From: a virus
Taxonomy: Duplodnaviria > Heunggongvirae > Uroviricota > Caudoviricetes
DNA: 30,192 bases
Virus record (IMG/VR): IMGVR_UViG_3300029071_000017
Direction: 5' to 3' (one strand)
In this document: in pieces, positions 21,400-30,192 of the stretch
Layout of the letters: every line of letters starts with the position of its first letter
Numbering within the stretch: position 1 is the first letter of the stretch
Position numbers and translations under genes: made by a program
The notes under the pieces: model-generated
What the model was told of the DNA's origin: nothing
The model's database searches: none
The model's input: the letters and a program-made list of their open reading frames with translations, nothing else

Positions 21400-21893
21400 T
21401 ACGCCCCCACGTAATTCCCTGACAGATACCACTCATCACTCGATACAGCGCGCTTGCTGCTTTTCCGTAAACACAGCTCACGACGCGCCAGAAAATTGTT
21501 TCGTTCTGGCTGGGAGTGGCTTTCACGGAATGCCGCCATCCACACGGTTGCAGCACGACGGTATAAGCCCCTGGACTCCAGTTCTTCAGCCTGGCGGGTC
21601 AGGCACAAAATCACCCGTGGATCGTTAGTGCCGACATAGAAATTGCGCACAGGTCTGGTTTCTCGAACTGGTTGTGGTTCCGGTTCCTGCGCTCTCTCAG
21701 TCAGGCGCGGGAAATGTCTGCGTGTATCTCCTTCACAACGGTGAGCCACACGCCCACTCTGACGTAACTTGCTTGCAGACTGCAGAACGCGCTGCCGTGA
21801 GTAACCTGCAAAAGCATCCGCAATGTCTCCGGAAGTACACCCCGGATGGGCTTCAATGCATTTCTGAACGTCATTTAACAGACTCATGATCAC
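21399..21893 (-). CDS. PerC-like transcriptional regulator
   Basis: 164-aa ORF; C-terminal half ...QAEELESRGLYRRAATVWMAAF...RRELCL resembles the PerC/Pch signature as I recall it; translationally coupled to the replication initiator. Confidence 0.4.
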   Translation of the reverse strand: MIMSLLNDVQKCIEAHPGCTSGDIADAFAGYSRQRVLQSASKLRQSGRVAHRCEGDTRRHFPRLTERAQEPEPQPVRETRPVRNFYVGTNDPRVILCLTRQAEELESRGLYRRAATVWMAAFRESHSQPERNNFLARRELCLRKSSKRAVSSDEWYLSGNYVGA

Positions 21894-22846
21894 CCTCTGA
21901 ATCCTGCCGGGATCTGGCTGTAGTCCACGTTGTCGTAACTGGCTTTGAAGTACGGGTCCTCGCGTTTTTCGGTGTACGTGCTGACGGACGGCGATAAGCG
22001 CAGGGAAAGCTCATCCCATTTTTCCCGCAGCTTCGACGGGCTGAGCACGTTACGGCACCAGAACGGATCGCGGCTGACACGGCTGTACATCTCGCAGATT
22101 TGTTTGTGAGTACGCCCATCCTGTACACACATCAGGCGAATTTCGTTTGCCCAGGCTGTCCAGTTCGGTTCTTTGGGACGAACCACCTCGCCGTCACATT
22201 CGGCAGCCTGCTCGTACAGGGCGATGATTTTTTTCCAGAGCCACTGTGCGCAGGTCAAATCATCCTGCGTCCCCCACTGGCGCTTTTTAGGGCTGAATAC
22301 AACCGCATCAGGATGGCGAGTTAAAAAATCCTGTTCAGCCGTCTGCGTGTCCGGTTGCGAAGCGTCCGGACGAGAAGGTTTTTTATCTGACGGATCATGT
22401 TTTGATTTTACTGACGGATCCCCGCCAGATTCTGACGGGTGAAAACCCGCTTTTTTGCCAGATTTCGACGCATCAAATTTTGACGGGTCAGATTTTGATG
22501 CGTCAGATTTTGATGCGTCAGATTTTGACGGGTCAGAATCTGACAGTTGAGAAAATGCCGCTGCCTGAAGCTTCGCAACGTTAAGCTGATAAACATTCGA
22601 CGCATTGCGGTTACCCTGGCGACGCGCCTTACGCGTTAACCAGCCTTCTGCTTCCAGCCGTGCGATAGCCGTTCTGACGGTACTCATCCCCGCGCCAATC
22701 TGACGGGCAATGGTTTCAATTGATGGCCAGCACACACCTTCGTCATTACTGAAATCAGCCAGGCGGGCCATAATTGCCACGCTGGATAACTTCATGCCTG
22801 ATGCAGCGCAACCATCCCATACATAGCCGGTTAATTTAGTGCTCAT
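21890..22846 (-). CDS. Replication initiator (O-like) with HTH N-terminus and iteron-encoded SKSDA repeats
   Basis: 318-aa ORF; N-terminal HTH-like region; central SKSDASKSDASKSDPSKFDASKS repeats encoded by tandem 15-bp DNA repeats; position after the cro/cII-like genes. Confidence 0.65.
   Translation of the reverse strand: MSTKLTGYVWDGCAASGMKLSSVAIMARLADFSNDEGVCWPSIETIARQIGAGMSTVRTAIARLEAEGWLTRKARRQGNRNASNVYQLNVAKLQAAAFSQLSDSDPSKSDASKSDASKSDPSKFDASKSGKKAGFHPSESGGDPSVKSKHDPSDKKPSRPDASQPDTQTAEQDFLTRHPDAVVFSPKKRQWGTQDDLTCAQWLWKKIIALYEQAAECDGEVVRPKEPNWTAWANEIRLMCVQDGRTHKQICEMYSRVSRDPFWCRNVLSPSKLREKWDELSLRLSPSVSTYTEKREDPYFKASYDNVDYSQIPAGFRG
22426..22548. repeat. Origin-like iteron array: about 7 tandem 15-bp repeats CAGATTTTGAYGSGT inside the initiator gene
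   Basis: Direct repeats read in the sequence (cagattctgacgggt, cagatttcgacgcat, caaattttgacgggt, cagattttgatgcgt x2, cagattttgacgggt, cagaatctgacagtt). Approximate coordinates. Confidence 0.65.
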
Positions 22847-23992: not shown

Positions 23993-24082
23993 ACAATATG
24001 TACCTCCGGTATACATATTACATGATTGAAATGAACCTTCAAGATACTTGTACCTTAACGGTACAAGGGTTTTAATTTTGTT
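23993..24082. promoter_or_regulatory. Immunity operator/promoter region (OR; divergent pR and pRM)
   Basis: Perfect 21-bp palindrome CTTGTACC-TTAAC-GGTACAAG (about 24046-24066) and imperfect palindrome ATATGTACCTCCGGTATACATAT (about 23994-24016); pR candidate TTGAAG-16-TAATAT on the minus strand; pRM candidate TTGTAC-17-TTTAAT ending about 7 nt before the repressor ATG. Confidence 0.6.
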
Positions 24083-24757
24083 ATGAAAACAATCCATGAC
24101 ATCCGGCGGTCTAACGCCAGAAAACTGAGAGATGGTGTTGGCGGGAATTCTTCCTTTGCCACTATGATTGATCGCGAGCCAACCCAGACCAGCAGGTTTA
24201 TGGGAGATGGTGCTACTAAAAATATCGGTGACAGCATGGCACGACACATCGAAAAATGTTTCGACCTGCCTGTCGGATGGCTCGATCAAGAACACCAGAC
24301 AACGAACATCACAAAAAAACCTGATGTTTCAATCACTAATAAACAAATCACATTAGTCCCTGTCATATCATGGGTACAGGCCGGAGCATGGAAAGAAGTT
24401 GGATATTCTGAGGTTGATTTGAGCACAGCAGAAACGTATCCCTGCCCTGTCCCCTGTGGGGAAATGACTTATATCTTGCGGGTGATAGGTGATTCAATGA
24501 TTGATGAGTACCGCCCGGGAGACATGATTTTTGTCGATCCTGAAGTACCTGCCTGCCACGGTGACGACGTTATTGCATTGATGCACGATACAGGTGAAAC
24601 CACCTTCAAAAGGTTGATAGAAGATGGGACACAGCGTTATCTCAAAGCGTTAAACCCAAACTGGCCTGAGCCTTACATTAAGATCAACGGTAATTGCTCT
24701 ATAATTGGTACAGTGATTTTCTCAGGAAAACCAAGAAGATACAAAATCAAAGCCTAA
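24083..24757 (+). CDS. CI/C2-type repressor (HTH N-terminus, LexA-like S24 autopeptidase C-terminus)
   Basis: 224-aa ORF; C-terminal ...ISWVQAGAWKEV...VIGDSMIDEY...ETTFKRLIEDGTQRYLKALNPNWPEPYIKINGNCSIIG parallels P22 C2 and the LexA catalytic Ser/Lys region. Confidence 0.85.
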   Translation: MKTIHDIRRSNARKLRDGVGGNSSFATMIDREPTQTSRFMGDGATKNIGDSMARHIEKCFDLPVGWLDQEHQTTNITKKPDVSITNKQITLVPVISWVQAGAWKEVGYSEVDLSTAETYPCPVPCGEMTYILRVIGDSMIDEYRPGDMIFVDPEVPACHGDDVIALMHDTGETTFKRLIEDGTQRYLKALNPNWPEPYIKINGNCSIIGTVIFSGKPRRYKIKA

Positions 24758-24769
24758 TCAATGTTTATG

Positions 24770-24792
24770 AACCTGCTTCGGCAGGTTTTTTT
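24770..24792 (+). terminator. Intrinsic terminator of the repressor gene
   Basis: AACCTGC-TTCG-GCAGGTT hairpin followed by 7 T directly after the repressor stop. Approximate coordinates. Confidence 0.7.
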
Positions 24793-24796
24793 ATAC

Positions 24797-24830
24797 TTGA
24801 CAATGTACCTTTTAGATACATAATGTACCC
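24797..24830 (+). promoter_or_regulatory. pL-like early promoter with operator-like AATGTACC repeats
   Basis: TTGACA-16 nt-CATAAT; AATGTACC occurs at -35/spacer and again overlapping -10, the same TGTACC core as the OR palindromes. Approximate coordinates. Confidence 0.6.
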
Positions 24831-24991
24831 AGGCGAAACAACAAACAGGCAGGACGTCCATGAAGTAGCCCCCTGGAGCATATGAAGTCCAGGATGATTC
24901 GTTAGCAACAAAAAAGCGCCCTACAGGACGCTTAGCTCTTTAACAATCTGGTCCCCATCAACAAGTAACTGATAACTTGAGGAGGTGTGAA

Positions 24992-25198
24992 ATGCACAAA
25001 ACAGAACCCAAAATCGTCGCGCCCGGATACACAAATGAGGAAATTTACGAGTGGATGGCAAAGAAGCTGGCAGCTATAAACCAGCTTCGTGAAGTGCTGT
25101 CTTATCGACAGGAAACAATAGACTCCTTAAAAAAACTGGATCAGGAAATCACGGTTTTATCACAGGATGTTACTTTAGATATTGTGCAGACAAATTAG
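24992..25198 (+). CDS. Small hypothetical protein (68 aa), first ORF of the rightward early operon
   Basis: ORF 24977-25198; start set at MHKTEPKIV with GAGGAGG 6 nt upstream; no Arg-rich motif, so not an N-type antiterminator. Confidence 0.45.
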   Translation: MHKTEPKIVAPGYTNEEIYEWMAKKLAAINQLREVLSYRQETIDSLKKLDQEITVLSQDVTLDIVQTN

Positions 25199-25604
25199 GA
25201 TCCCATTCATTTTCGTCAAAATCATCAAAGTGATGAATTTGTGATCTCCAGTCTCGATAATCTAAAAATTTCTGGGCGGTTACGCTTATTTTATCAAGTG
25301 TGAGTTCATCCTGAATTGAAAGAAGAAGTTCATCAAATTTCATCTCATTAATCTGTTTTGGCATCCAGTGATGCTTCATCAGAATAAGGTGAACCAGAGC
25401 CTTTTTCCCATTCAACTGATTATAGGGAGTGCCGAATTTCTTCCGGTGCTCATGTAAGACAAGGTCCAGAAGAGTAAGTAATGTTGCCCTTGATTCGACT
25501 TTGCTTATTTCGACTGATGACACTACCCCACTGATTTCAATGCCCCGATACTTTCCAACATTTTCACAGTGGGATTTGTACAGCGTGTAGATATTACCGG
25601 ACAT
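25170..25604 (-). CDS. Hypothetical 144-aa protein, AT-rich, convergent to the early operon
   Basis: Clean ORF antisense to pL-direction transcription, AT-rich relative to flanks, AAGGA RBS; 3' end overlaps the 68-aa ORF by about 29 nt. Confidence 0.5.
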   Translation of the reverse strand: MSGNIYTLYKSHCENVGKYRGIEISGVVSSVEISKVESRATLLTLLDLVLHEHRKKFGTPYNQLNGKKALVHLILMKHHWMPKQINEMKFDELLLSIQDELTLDKISVTAQKFLDYRDWRSQIHHFDDFDENEWDPNLSAQYLK

Positions 25605-26148
25605 TTCTTTTCCTTTTGCGTTGTTGGGGATAACCAGATTAACCGAATCCTTGTTGTTGGGGAATAACCAGGTCCACCTCGCCTGATGTGGCTAAAAGCA
25701 GGCACATAACAGCTAAGTATTTTCAACCAGAGAGAATCCTTAGCGTTGTGGTGAATGCGGCTCAGCGCACGCGGGTTAAGGTTGAGGCTGACAGTCGACC
25801 TTCTGTGGATACCCACCCGCCTGGTGTGCAACCTTCGCCAGGCACCGGGAGGCACCCGGCACCACAACTTTATGCTGTGTGTAGTCCTGGCGGTACCAGT
25901 TTGTACCCTTGCTTCCGGCTGGTACCGTCCTTTTTACAAAACAGAGAAGAGCATCACCGGACGACGGGCTCATAACCCAATCCATCCGGGCGGCTGCCAC
26001 CGCAGGTGTTCTTCTCTGTTTTGTGGAGAAACTAACCGCCCCTACGGGGGCATTTATGGAAATGTAATTGACTCAATAATCGCCGGACGGTGAGGGCTTC
26101 CTTTTACCCGAATTCAGCGCGGTGCAGCGCATATACGTGGAGAACAAA
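25605..26148. other. GC-rich non-coding region with direct and inverted repeats (candidate structured RNA / regulatory region)
   Basis: No credible ORF. Direct repeats TTGTTGGGGATAACCAG and TTGTTGGGGAATAACCAG (about 25621-25671); 9-bp inverted repeat CGGTACCAG/CTGGTACCG (about 25891-25927) followed by TTTTT; 15-bp perfect inverted repeat ACAAAACAGAGAAGA/TCTTCTCTGTTTTGT (about 25936-25950 and 26010-26024). Confidence 0.4.
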
Positions 26149-28747: not shown

Positions 28748-28823
28748 TGGTGCCGATAATAGGAGTCGAACCTACGACCTTCGCATTACGAATGCGCTGC
28801 TCTACCAACTGAGCTATATCGGC
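28748..28823 (-). tRNA. thrW: tRNA-Thr (anticodon CGU), thrW-type; prophage attachment site at its 3' end
   Basis: Reverse complement reads GCCGATATAGCTCAGTTGGTAGAGCAGCGCATTCGTAATGCGAAGGTCGTAGGTTCGACTCCTATTATCGGCACCA: 7-bp acceptor stem, CGT anticodon in a 7-nt loop, T-arm GGTTCGACTCC, 3' CCA. Coordinates within 1 bp. Confidence 0.9.
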
Positions 28824-28938: not shown

Positions 28939-30192
28939 TTACGCACGAACGGTGTAATCACCAATACCGATCCACTTGTAGGTGGTCAGCGCTTCCAGCC
29001 CCATTGGTCCGCGTGCGTGGAGTTTTTGCGTGCTTACCGCCACTTCCGCGCCAAGACCAAACTGGCCGCCGTCGGTGAAACGTGTAGACGCGTTAACGTA
29101 AACAGCAGAGGAGTCCACTTCATTGACAAAACGCTGGGCATTGCGCATATCACGCGTCAGGATCGCATCGGAGTGTTGCGTCCCGTGTTCACGAATATGG
29201 GCGATGGCGTCGTCAAGATCGCTGACGATTTTGACGTTCAAATCTAACGACAGGAATTCATCGTCATACTCTTCCGCCTTAACAGCCACCACTTTCGCAG
29301 ATCCTGCCTGCAACTGCGCCAGTGCCGCAGCATCGGCGTGTAACGTCACGCCGCTTTCCGCCATTTGCTTGCTTAACGCAGGCAGGAAGTTATCAGCGAT
29401 GTTTTTATTCACCAGCAACGTTTCTACCGTATTGCAGGTACTCGGACGCTGGGTTTTCGCGTTGACGATCACTTTCAGGGCTGCAGAAATGTCAGCACTT
29501 TCATCAACGTAAATATGGCAGACGCCAATGCCGCCAGTGATCACCGGAATTGTCGACTGCTCGCGGCACAGCTTATGCAAACCAGCACCACCACGCGGGA
29601 TCAACATGTCGATGTATTTATCCATGCGCAGCATTTCACTCACCAGCGCGCGATCCGGATTATCAATCGCCTGCACTGCGCCTGCCGGTAAACCGCAGGA
29701 TTTCAGGGCGTCCTGAATCACCGCTACCGTTGCAGCGTTAGTGCGACAGGTTTCTTTGCCGCCGCGCAGGATCACCGCGTTACCGGTTTTCAGACACAGC
29801 GAAGCGACATCAACTGTCACGTTCGGACGCGCTTCATAAATTACACCTATAACACCCAGCGGCACGCGGCGACGCTCCAGACGCAGACCGCTGTCCAGCA
29901 CACCTCCATCAATCACCTGCCCTACCGGATCGGCAAGATTACACACCTGCCGCACATCGTCGGCAATGCCTTTCAGGCGCGCGGGCGTTAACGCCAGACG
30001 GTCAAGCATCGCTTCGCTAAGGCCATTGGCACGCGCGTCAGCAACATCCTGGGCGTTAGCATCGAGGATGCTTTCGCTCTGTGCTTCCAGCTCATCAGCG
30101 ATCTTTTCCAGCACGCGATTTTTTTCGCGGCTGGAGAGTTGCGCTAATTTATACGAGGCTTGCTTCGCAGCAATGCCCATTTGTTCCAGCAT
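28939..30192 (-). CDS. proA: Gamma-glutamyl phosphate reductase (host gene, complete)
   Basis: 417-aa [41 protein letters not shown]... matches E. coli ProA; start codon is the last three bases of the window. Confidence 0.95.

Follow-up and report, generated by a model that had tools for sequence, protein, structure and literature searches.

The closest known system to the locus described here is sieB/esc/sas of the phages P22 and lambda, and the sas/sieB mechanism in P22 was reportedly set out by Ranade and Poteete in 1993. In P22 a leftward antisense transcript of 105 nt, sas RNA, turns off translation of SieB (PMC12197685). Two further systems invite comparison, BstA/aba (Owen et al. 2021, PMC8585504) and the ydfC-dicF segment of the dicB operon of prophage Qin, the gene order of which, including ydfC, has been described (PMC6206680). 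Here we analyse a 30,192-nucleotide stretch of a tailed-phage genome of the class Caudoviricetes (IMG/VR virus record IMGVR_UViG_3300029071_000017; the whole stretch is referred to as the window), and within it a 144-codon gene on the minus strand, orf144, and the convergent 68-codon gene orf68. orf144 encodes a protein of the ECs1072 family and is an accessory gene ('moron') of an SfIV/SfII-like prophage. It lies behind a promoter and leader region homologous to that of sieB.

The last 60-110 nt 5′ of the start codon were strongly conserved among family members whose proteins were only 22-37% identical. In the window, this region was 66-67% identical to the lambda and P22 sieB upstream regions over 99-106 nt, with a local alignment score of 51 compared with 14.7 ± 2.2 in shuffled sequences (shuffle maximum 29), which places it among homologues of the sieB promoter region. 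An nhmmer profile of the leader matched the window at 25706-25653 on the minus strand (E = 2.8e-6), the conserved block thus occupying 25653-25706. Two direct repeats were found at 25620-25635 and 25653-25668, with CCCCAACAAC occurring twice, a match count that was reached in none of 100 shuffles. The P22 and lambda sieB leaders contain CCCCTACAG twice, and both direct repeats lie within the alignment with the window leader. The leader consensus also matched lambda at 34395-34429 and P22 at 29650-29684, in each case just upstream of sieB, and the P22 record annotates a sieB promoter and RNA start. By homology, the promoter of orf144 would have its -35 element at approximately 25667-25662, its -10 element (TAATCT) at approximately 25641-25636 and its transcription start site at about 25631.

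Two other interpretations of the upstream region were rejected. The direct repeats are not CII or operator sites, being absent elsewhere in the immunity region, and represent ancestral repeats of the sieB leader. Conserved RNA secondary structure was not supported either: the RNAalifold energy of the leader was negligible, and its helices were almost invariant, with one covarying pair only.

The protein encoded behind this leader is not SieB. A blastp comparison of the orf144 product with P22 SieB gave nothing better than E = 9.5, and a Pfam search returned no match, including to the SieB family PF14163. As the leaders are homologous and the proteins unrelated, orf144 is a non-homologous replacement of sieB. 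Its position agrees with the P22 and lambda maps, since orf144 lies downstream of pL, in the opposite orientation, and converges with the first pL gene. The first-pass annotation, made from the sequence alone, had proposed a defence or lysogenic-conversion locus on general grounds, and occupation of the slot of a proven superinfection-exclusion gene gives that idea a specific footing.

The window represents an SfIV/SfII/CPS-53-like prophage integrated at tRNA-Thr(CGT) (28748-28823). On the plus strand, the order is the Peptidase_S24 repressor gene, a terminator, pL, orf68, orf144 (on the opposite strand), approximately 500 nt with no credible open reading frame (ORF), yfdR, yfdS, yfdT, xis and int. 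The features of this region are:

24083-24757, plus strand: CI/LexA-type prophage repressor gene (Pfam PF00717, Peptidase_S24, E = 1.5e-26)
24769-24796, plus strand: intrinsic terminator 3′ of the repressor gene, an 8-bp stem followed by a T-run
24797-24824, plus strand: pL-type early promoter, TTGACA-16-CATAAT, 11/12 match to consensus
24803-24821: operator-like palindrome ATGTACC-N5-GATACAT, overlapping the pL -10 element and unique in the window
24914-24933, minus strand: intrinsic terminator at which the orf144 transcript probably ends, an 8-bp stem with 5 GC pairs followed by TTTTTGTTGCT
24992-25198, plus strand: orf68, the YdfC-like partner and first gene downstream of pL (PHROG 1744, E = 4.8e-34), with ribosome binding site (RBS) GAGGAGG
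25170-25604, minus strand: orf144, ECs1072-family gene and cargo of the sieB slot (NF033230, PHROG 5286)
25170-25198: convergent 3′ overlap of orf68 and orf144, 29 nt
25605-25712, minus strand: sieB-type promoter and leader, homologous to the lambda and P22 sieB upstream regions
25715-25937, plus strand: STnc100/PasD-like small RNA (sRNA), the divergent neighbour of orf144 (Rfam RF02076)

The arrangement reported in the first-pass annotation was largely borne out. orf144 is intact, starts with ATG and lies between the repressor gene and the yfdR-int segment, an AAGGA RBS is present 6 nt 5′ of the ATG, the overlap with the 68-codon ORF is 29 nt as had been estimated, and the promoter placed at about 24797 does oppose orf144 and carries an operator-like palindrome. 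The gene had also been called much AT-richer than its flanks. At 38.6% GC, compared with 51.6% for the window, orf144 falls in the lowest 3.2% of 435-nt windows, and the contrast is clear against the right flank (53% GC); against the left flank (41-45% GC) it is small.

Homologues of the repressor are named 'LexA family protein' by PGAP and 'repressor / cI' in the SfIV record. Two or three more copies of the TGTACC/GGTACA half-sites of the pL palindrome occur at 24000-24065, between cI and a cro-like gene. The palindrome over the -10 element, together with the same half-sites in the cI-cro intergenic region, therefore indicates that pL is controlled by the repressor. Mutually antisense transcripts had been predicted from the 3′ overlap, and the prediction can be extended: as the minus-strand terminator at 24933-24914 lies beyond orf68, the whole of orf68 and its RBS would be antisense to the 3′ untranslated region of the orf144 mRNA. 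This terminator is conserved in the E. albertii locus L028. A terminator distal to the partner gene is not a family-wide rule, as the layout was found in the window and in locus L020 only. A weak plus-strand terminator-like hairpin at 25273-25288, inside orf144, could end pL transcripts past orf68 when there is no antitermination.

The earlier statement that no domain could be recognised in orf144 holds for Pfam; the protein is nevertheless a member of a named family. It matched NCBIfam NF033230 ('ECs1072 family phage-associated protein') with 157.8 bits (curated cutoff 70 bits; E = 1.7e-46) over profile positions 2-142 of 142, and PHROG 5286, in the category 'unknown function', with E = 1.5e-90 over positions 1-144 of 144. 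orf144 is thus a full-length member of both, and both are naming families; in the libraries and papers searched, neither is linked to a function, a partner, a slot or a mode of regulation. A profile search of 1.84 billion representative proteins found 76 clusters (at 50% identity) that match the family. Nearly all full-length relatives are single-domain proteins of 143-161 amino acids, and all the named sources belong to the Enterobacterales, with relatives in prophages of Shigella, Salmonella, Klebsiella, Yersinia, Serratia, Proteus and Pantoea.

That orf144 might be a chance or decaying ORF, at a place where only antisense RNA matters, was considered because it is AT-rich, contains no Pfam domain and has unannotated counterparts in ST64B and a Klebsiella phage. 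This explanation is effectively refuted. The family alignment shows no variation at W134 and hardly any at L50, R54, L64, G66, A69 and H72, and R54, G66, H72 and W134 are kept by 76 diverged full-length relatives. Comparison with a 72%-identical allele from E. albertii gave a dN/dS of 0.20 at a dS of 0.83. An AlphaFold2 model built from a 45-sequence alignment was all-helical, with a pLDDT of 94 and a pTM of 0.88, and the product is predicted to be soluble, without a membrane segment. Of 5426 complete E. coli genomes, 422 (7.8%) contain the allele. The first-pass annotation had raised frameshifting in related prophages as a finding that would count against the gene; among the full-length matches listed from these 422 genomes, all 29 were annotated as intact, 25 of them under the ECs1072 family name.

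The E. albertii locus also shows that the gene can be exchanged. Its identity to the window is 78% within orf144, 98.6% in the upstream non-coding region and approximately 94% over orf68. Since the flanks are near-identical and the ORF has diverged, the orf144 allele has been swapped by recombination exactly at the ORF borders.

The 68-codon ORF entered the first-pass annotation through its overlap with orf144. It is more than an incidental neighbour and proved to be a conserved partner of ECs1072-family genes. The orf68 product was 38-39% identical to the products of annotated ydfC genes by tblastn, and carries the motif EP-x5-7-hs-x-EEL-x2-WL in its N-terminal part, with a coiled coil behind it. 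A hidden Markov model (HMM) of the partner detected a convergent YdfC-like homologue beside 37 of 42 ECs1072-family genes, and the 3′ ends of the two genes overlap for 23 of 27 distinct ECs1072 genes with such a homologue, by 22-223 nt between stop-to-stop frames (23 nt in the window by that measure). Divergence of the two proteins was correlated (Mantel r = 0.78, p = 5e-4). Among the matches listed from the leader search described below, the partner stood beside 16 of 18 ECs1072 cargos and 17 of 95 other cargos of the same leader (Fisher p = 1e-8, relatedness being ignored).

In every locus recovered, the ECs1072-family gene was oriented head-on to a lytic transcription unit. Three contexts were observed: between the repressor and the early-left genes in many lambdoid prophages, between Q (or nin-type genes) and the holin gene in Serratia, ST64B and Klebsiella phages, and within the early operon of Pantoea P2-like prophages. 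An nhmmer search for the leader found none at the ST64B, Klebsiella and Pantoea loci and a partial one only at the Serratia locus. As the pair is present also where no leader was found, the ECs1072 and YdfC-like genes move as a unit.

Two of these loci contain intact family members that lack annotation. In ST64B an ECs1072-family ORF lies at L017 2812-3279 on the plus strand, between late-region genes and the holin gene, with the convergent YdfC-like gene annotated as sb50. In Klebsiella phage KPP5665-2 one lies at L018 2782-3291 on the plus strand, between Q and the holin gene, with the convergent YdfC-like gene annotated as gp45. At the E. albertii locus the partner of the 72%-identical allele (L028 1070-1312) is frameshifted by one base in a T-run, giving an 80-residue product with an unrelated tail, which could reflect decay, phase variation or a sequencing error.

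Such a pairing could also be read with the roles reversed. The YdfC-like protein would then be an active, possibly host-toxic lytic factor, and the ECs1072 protein, together with the antisense mRNA, would silence its leaky expression in the lysogen, as a safety device in prophage maintenance or the lysis-lysogeny decision. As antisense, the orf144 mRNA would span orf68 completely, RBS included; the two proteins co-diverge, and the dicB operon of Qin, homologous and containing ydfC, encodes toxic early products. However, 19 of 25 phage records with YdfC-like genes have no ECs1072 gene, so that an antidote is evidently not needed, and a conserved 144-residue protein under purifying selection exceeds what an antisense RNA would require. 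We regard the reversed assignment as unlikely.

A toxin-antitoxin-like addiction module, in which the ECs1072 toxin and the YdfC-like antitoxin stabilise the prophage, is improbable. It would account for a co-inherited two-gene module in which a small acidic partner (pI 5.0) can occur alone and the larger protein rarely does. The genes are, however, convergent rather than co-transcribed, neither resembles known toxin-antitoxin families in Pfam or PADLOC, and the presumed antitoxin would depend on promoters silent in the lysogen (pL, late and P2 Pe), so that a constitutive toxin would kill its host.

These observations suggest the following mechanism. In the lysogen, pL would be repressed and orf144 transcribed from its own weak sieB-type promoter, from the start site near 25631 to the terminator at 24933-24914, yielding an mRNA fully antisense to orf68 including its RBS. 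On induction, pL transcription would proceed head-on through orf144 and its leader, shutting orf144 off by collision and antisense pairing, much as sas RNA acts on sieB in P22, and the same transcript would concurrently yield the YdfC-like protein. The ECs1072 protein may block superinfecting phages by exclusion or abortive infection, and its cognate YdfC-like protein, made in the lytic cycle only, would neutralise it and so provide self-immunity, in a manner comparable to SieB/Esc/sas and BstA/aba. Exclusion with self-immunity is favoured because the one cargo of the slot to be characterised is an abortive-infection or exclusion protein and because the partner is restricted to the lytic transcript in all three contexts. 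Comparative analysis thus leads us to propose, tentatively and as somewhat short of probable, that orf144 encodes a lysogen-expressed exclusion or abortive-infection protein with cognate self-immunity.

Several observations weigh against this proposal. No defence family in PADLOC 2.0 matched orf144 or orf68 at E values up to 1, and neither the Pfam, PADLOC and Protein Data Bank (PDB) searches nor the search of BFVD revealed a fold or sequence relative that points to an activity. The orf144 product contains no membrane segment, unlike SieB. A consensus promoter scan of the minus strand upstream of orf144 found none, and the hexamers assigned by homology are weak. The partner was not detected by HMM at 5 of 42 ECs1072 loci, one of which, L023, has a diverged candidate, and YdfC-like genes are also present without ECs1072, for example in Qin and the PPompW phages. 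Finally, the other cargos of the slot are uncharacterised, so that its use for defence only is not proven.

The remote-homology and structure predictions suggested in the first-pass annotation gave the 76 clusters and the confident model described above. A structure search of BFVD with the model returned nothing with E below 0.8, and a profile search of PDB sequences found no relative. Two specific identities were dismissed on motifs, an HD-domain phosphohydrolase, as orf144 lacks the H...HD...D metal motif, and a HEPN-like protein. The papers searched on ECs1072, its accession and YdfC assigned no function and reported no experiment on orf144, though earlier testing remains possible. The homologue in strain Sakai, ECs1072, gave a regulated transcript in uninduced cultures, with a 2.1-fold change at a growth phase transition (PMC2241611). 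This transcript is the sole expression support for the family, and it is indirect.

To determine how widely the leader is distributed, IMG/VR was searched for TCTTGG-N6-9-ACACARCCAAGA, a pattern drawn from the 3′ half of the leader in its common form. The window leader itself does not contain this pattern, being a diverged variant that resembles the lambda/P22 form. The search found at least 120 contigs (L029-L148). Among the matches listed, 20 of 121 pattern instances precede an ECs1072-family gene, and the rest are followed, 2-14 nt past the motif, by the start codons of small ORFs from at least 21 other unrelated families, so that at least 22 cargo families, ECs1072 included, are found behind a sieB-type leader. 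Across the 111 unique sequences among these matches, the portion of the block outside the search pattern (TGTGCCTG..CCAC.TCAGGC..GGTGG) was mostly 90-99% conserved, and conservation ended abruptly on the upstream side. In locus L009 the leader precedes SieB itself. In SfII the same leader is followed by a gene for 63 residues, PhiR49_1 has another gene in the slot, and SfV retains a leader remnant only. In a Yersinia prophage, an ECs1072 gene with a full leader stands in tandem with a SieB gene, whose leader is partial. A Pfam search with the ten largest of the other cargo families gave no match above cutoffs, with weak zinc-ribbon matches for two. The sieB-type leader has the appearance of a portable expression platform, in a prophage slot with hypervariable content.

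The leader spans approximately 75 nt directly 5′ of start codons and sometimes occurs in tandem cassettes. Further copies were noted at L003 2469-2534, L009 5718-5753 and L025 4837-4884.

The variety of cargos also fits a reading in which orf144 serves lysogenic conversion, acting on host physiology or fitness and unrelated to phages, with the sieB slot a convenient site for expression in the lysogen. At least 22 unrelated small cargos without assigned function occupy the slot, the gene is present in 7.8% of complete E. coli genomes from many sources, and the Sakai homologue responds to a growth phase transition. This explanation is rather unlikely, as it does not account for the tight, co-diverging pairing with a gene of the lytic transcript in three prophage contexts, and the sole characterised cargo of the slot is an exclusion gene.

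The favoured reading, exclusion with self-immunity, can be taken further. The ECs1072 and YdfC-like genes might form an unrecognised two-gene anti-phage module, with a fold that resembles none known, which operates in the lysogen and which the partner protein and antisense pL transcription inactivate once the phage enters its own lytic cycle. The sieB promoter region might likewise be a portable, antisense-switchable platform behind which temperate phages of Enterobacterales swap at least 22 unrelated cargos, marking a defined, easily mined reservoir of uncharacterised exclusion genes. This wider formulation is doubtful at present. Should the exclusion role of orf144 hold, its product would be a new type of exclusion protein with a new fold, and self-immunity to it would come from a partner protein; the allele is present in about 8% of complete E. 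coli genomes. Irrespective of the role of orf144, the conserved leader provides a simple sequence handle, marking at least 22 unrelated lysogen-side cargo genes on at least 120 viral contigs. Island-based defence searches would overlook these cargos, which are candidate superinfection-exclusion genes.

That the flanking non-coding region mentioned in the first-pass annotation is made up of the sieB-type leader and an sRNA gene had been overlooked. The stretch 25715-25937 on the plus strand matched Rfam RF02076 (STnc100) with 43.1 bits (E = 1.2e-7) over the full model length, and ends in a terminal hairpin and T-run. As the gathering score is 47 bits, this RNA falls just under formal membership and is a close relative. 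The STnc100 family of prophage sRNAs has recently been linked to PasD (bioRxiv 10.64898/2026.05.13.724894). A query comprising 24760-26125 was matched in approximately 2800 E. coli records, mostly, judging by the phage matches, through its right-hand (sRNA) part. A structured non-coding RNA or retron at 25605-26120 was rejected, as Rfam gave only the STnc100-like sRNA and no reverse transcriptase lies nearby.

A pseudogene in this stretch, as implied by the PGAP 'frameshifted' call and by SfIV_34/35, was likewise rejected, since the stretch is equally non-coding in SfIV and the true yfdP-like gene begins further on. Homology to SfIV ends at approximately 26036, before that gene, which is missing from the window as it is from SfII. 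The PGAP 'frameshifted hypothetical protein' (window 25748-26067), SfIV_34/35 (L002 3764-4676) and SfII_35 (L003 2583-2921) probably represent spurious ORFs called across the leader and sRNA region. Annotation can thus be corrected in several reference phages, which leave the gene uncalled or place spurious ORFs on the leader and the sRNA.

Just past the sRNA is a 25-nt inverted repeat (25936-25960 and 26000-26024, 84% complementary, with a 39-nt loop), and a small GC hairpin at 26037-26052 coincides with the point where SfIV homology ends. Elsewhere in the window, a 318-residue replication-type protein (21890-22846, minus strand) contains tandem SDASK-type peptide repeats at approximately 22400-22600, which imply DNA repeats and could be origin iterons within the gene, as in lambda O.

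New in this comparison are the homology to the sieB leader, the constant head-on orientation to a lytic promoter and the convergent YdfC-like partner. With sieB/esc/sas of P22 and lambda, orf144 shares its slot, which separates the repressor/pL region from the remainder of the early-left operon, its direction, opposed to pL and towards the first pL gene, a homologous promoter region of approximately 110 nt with two direct repeats, and the same exposure to antisense pL transcription, which in P22 gives sas RNA (PMC12197685). It differs in encoding an unrelated protein, predicted to be soluble whereas SieB is membrane-associated, in showing no evident Esc-like internal start, and in having as its neighbour a co-diverging YdfC-like gene instead of N/24. 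Exclusion is proven for sieB and predicted only for orf144.

The likeness to BstA/aba is a functional analogy only, without similarity in sequence or fold. In both, a prophage gene near the repressor is expressed in the lysogen (for orf144, by inference), and the phage's own lytic cycle is, or would be, protected from its own defence (PMC8585504). Self-immunity to BstA resides in a DNA element within the gene; for orf144 we propose a separate partner protein and antisense transcription. The Qin ydfC-dicF segment resembles the other half of the locus, as orf68 is YdfC-like and is followed on the same strand by an sRNA gene, DicF in Qin and the STnc100-like RNA in the window. The two sRNAs belong to different Rfam families, YdfC has no known function, and in Qin the interval from ydfC to the sRNA gene, where orf144 lies in the window, contains no ECs1072-type gene.
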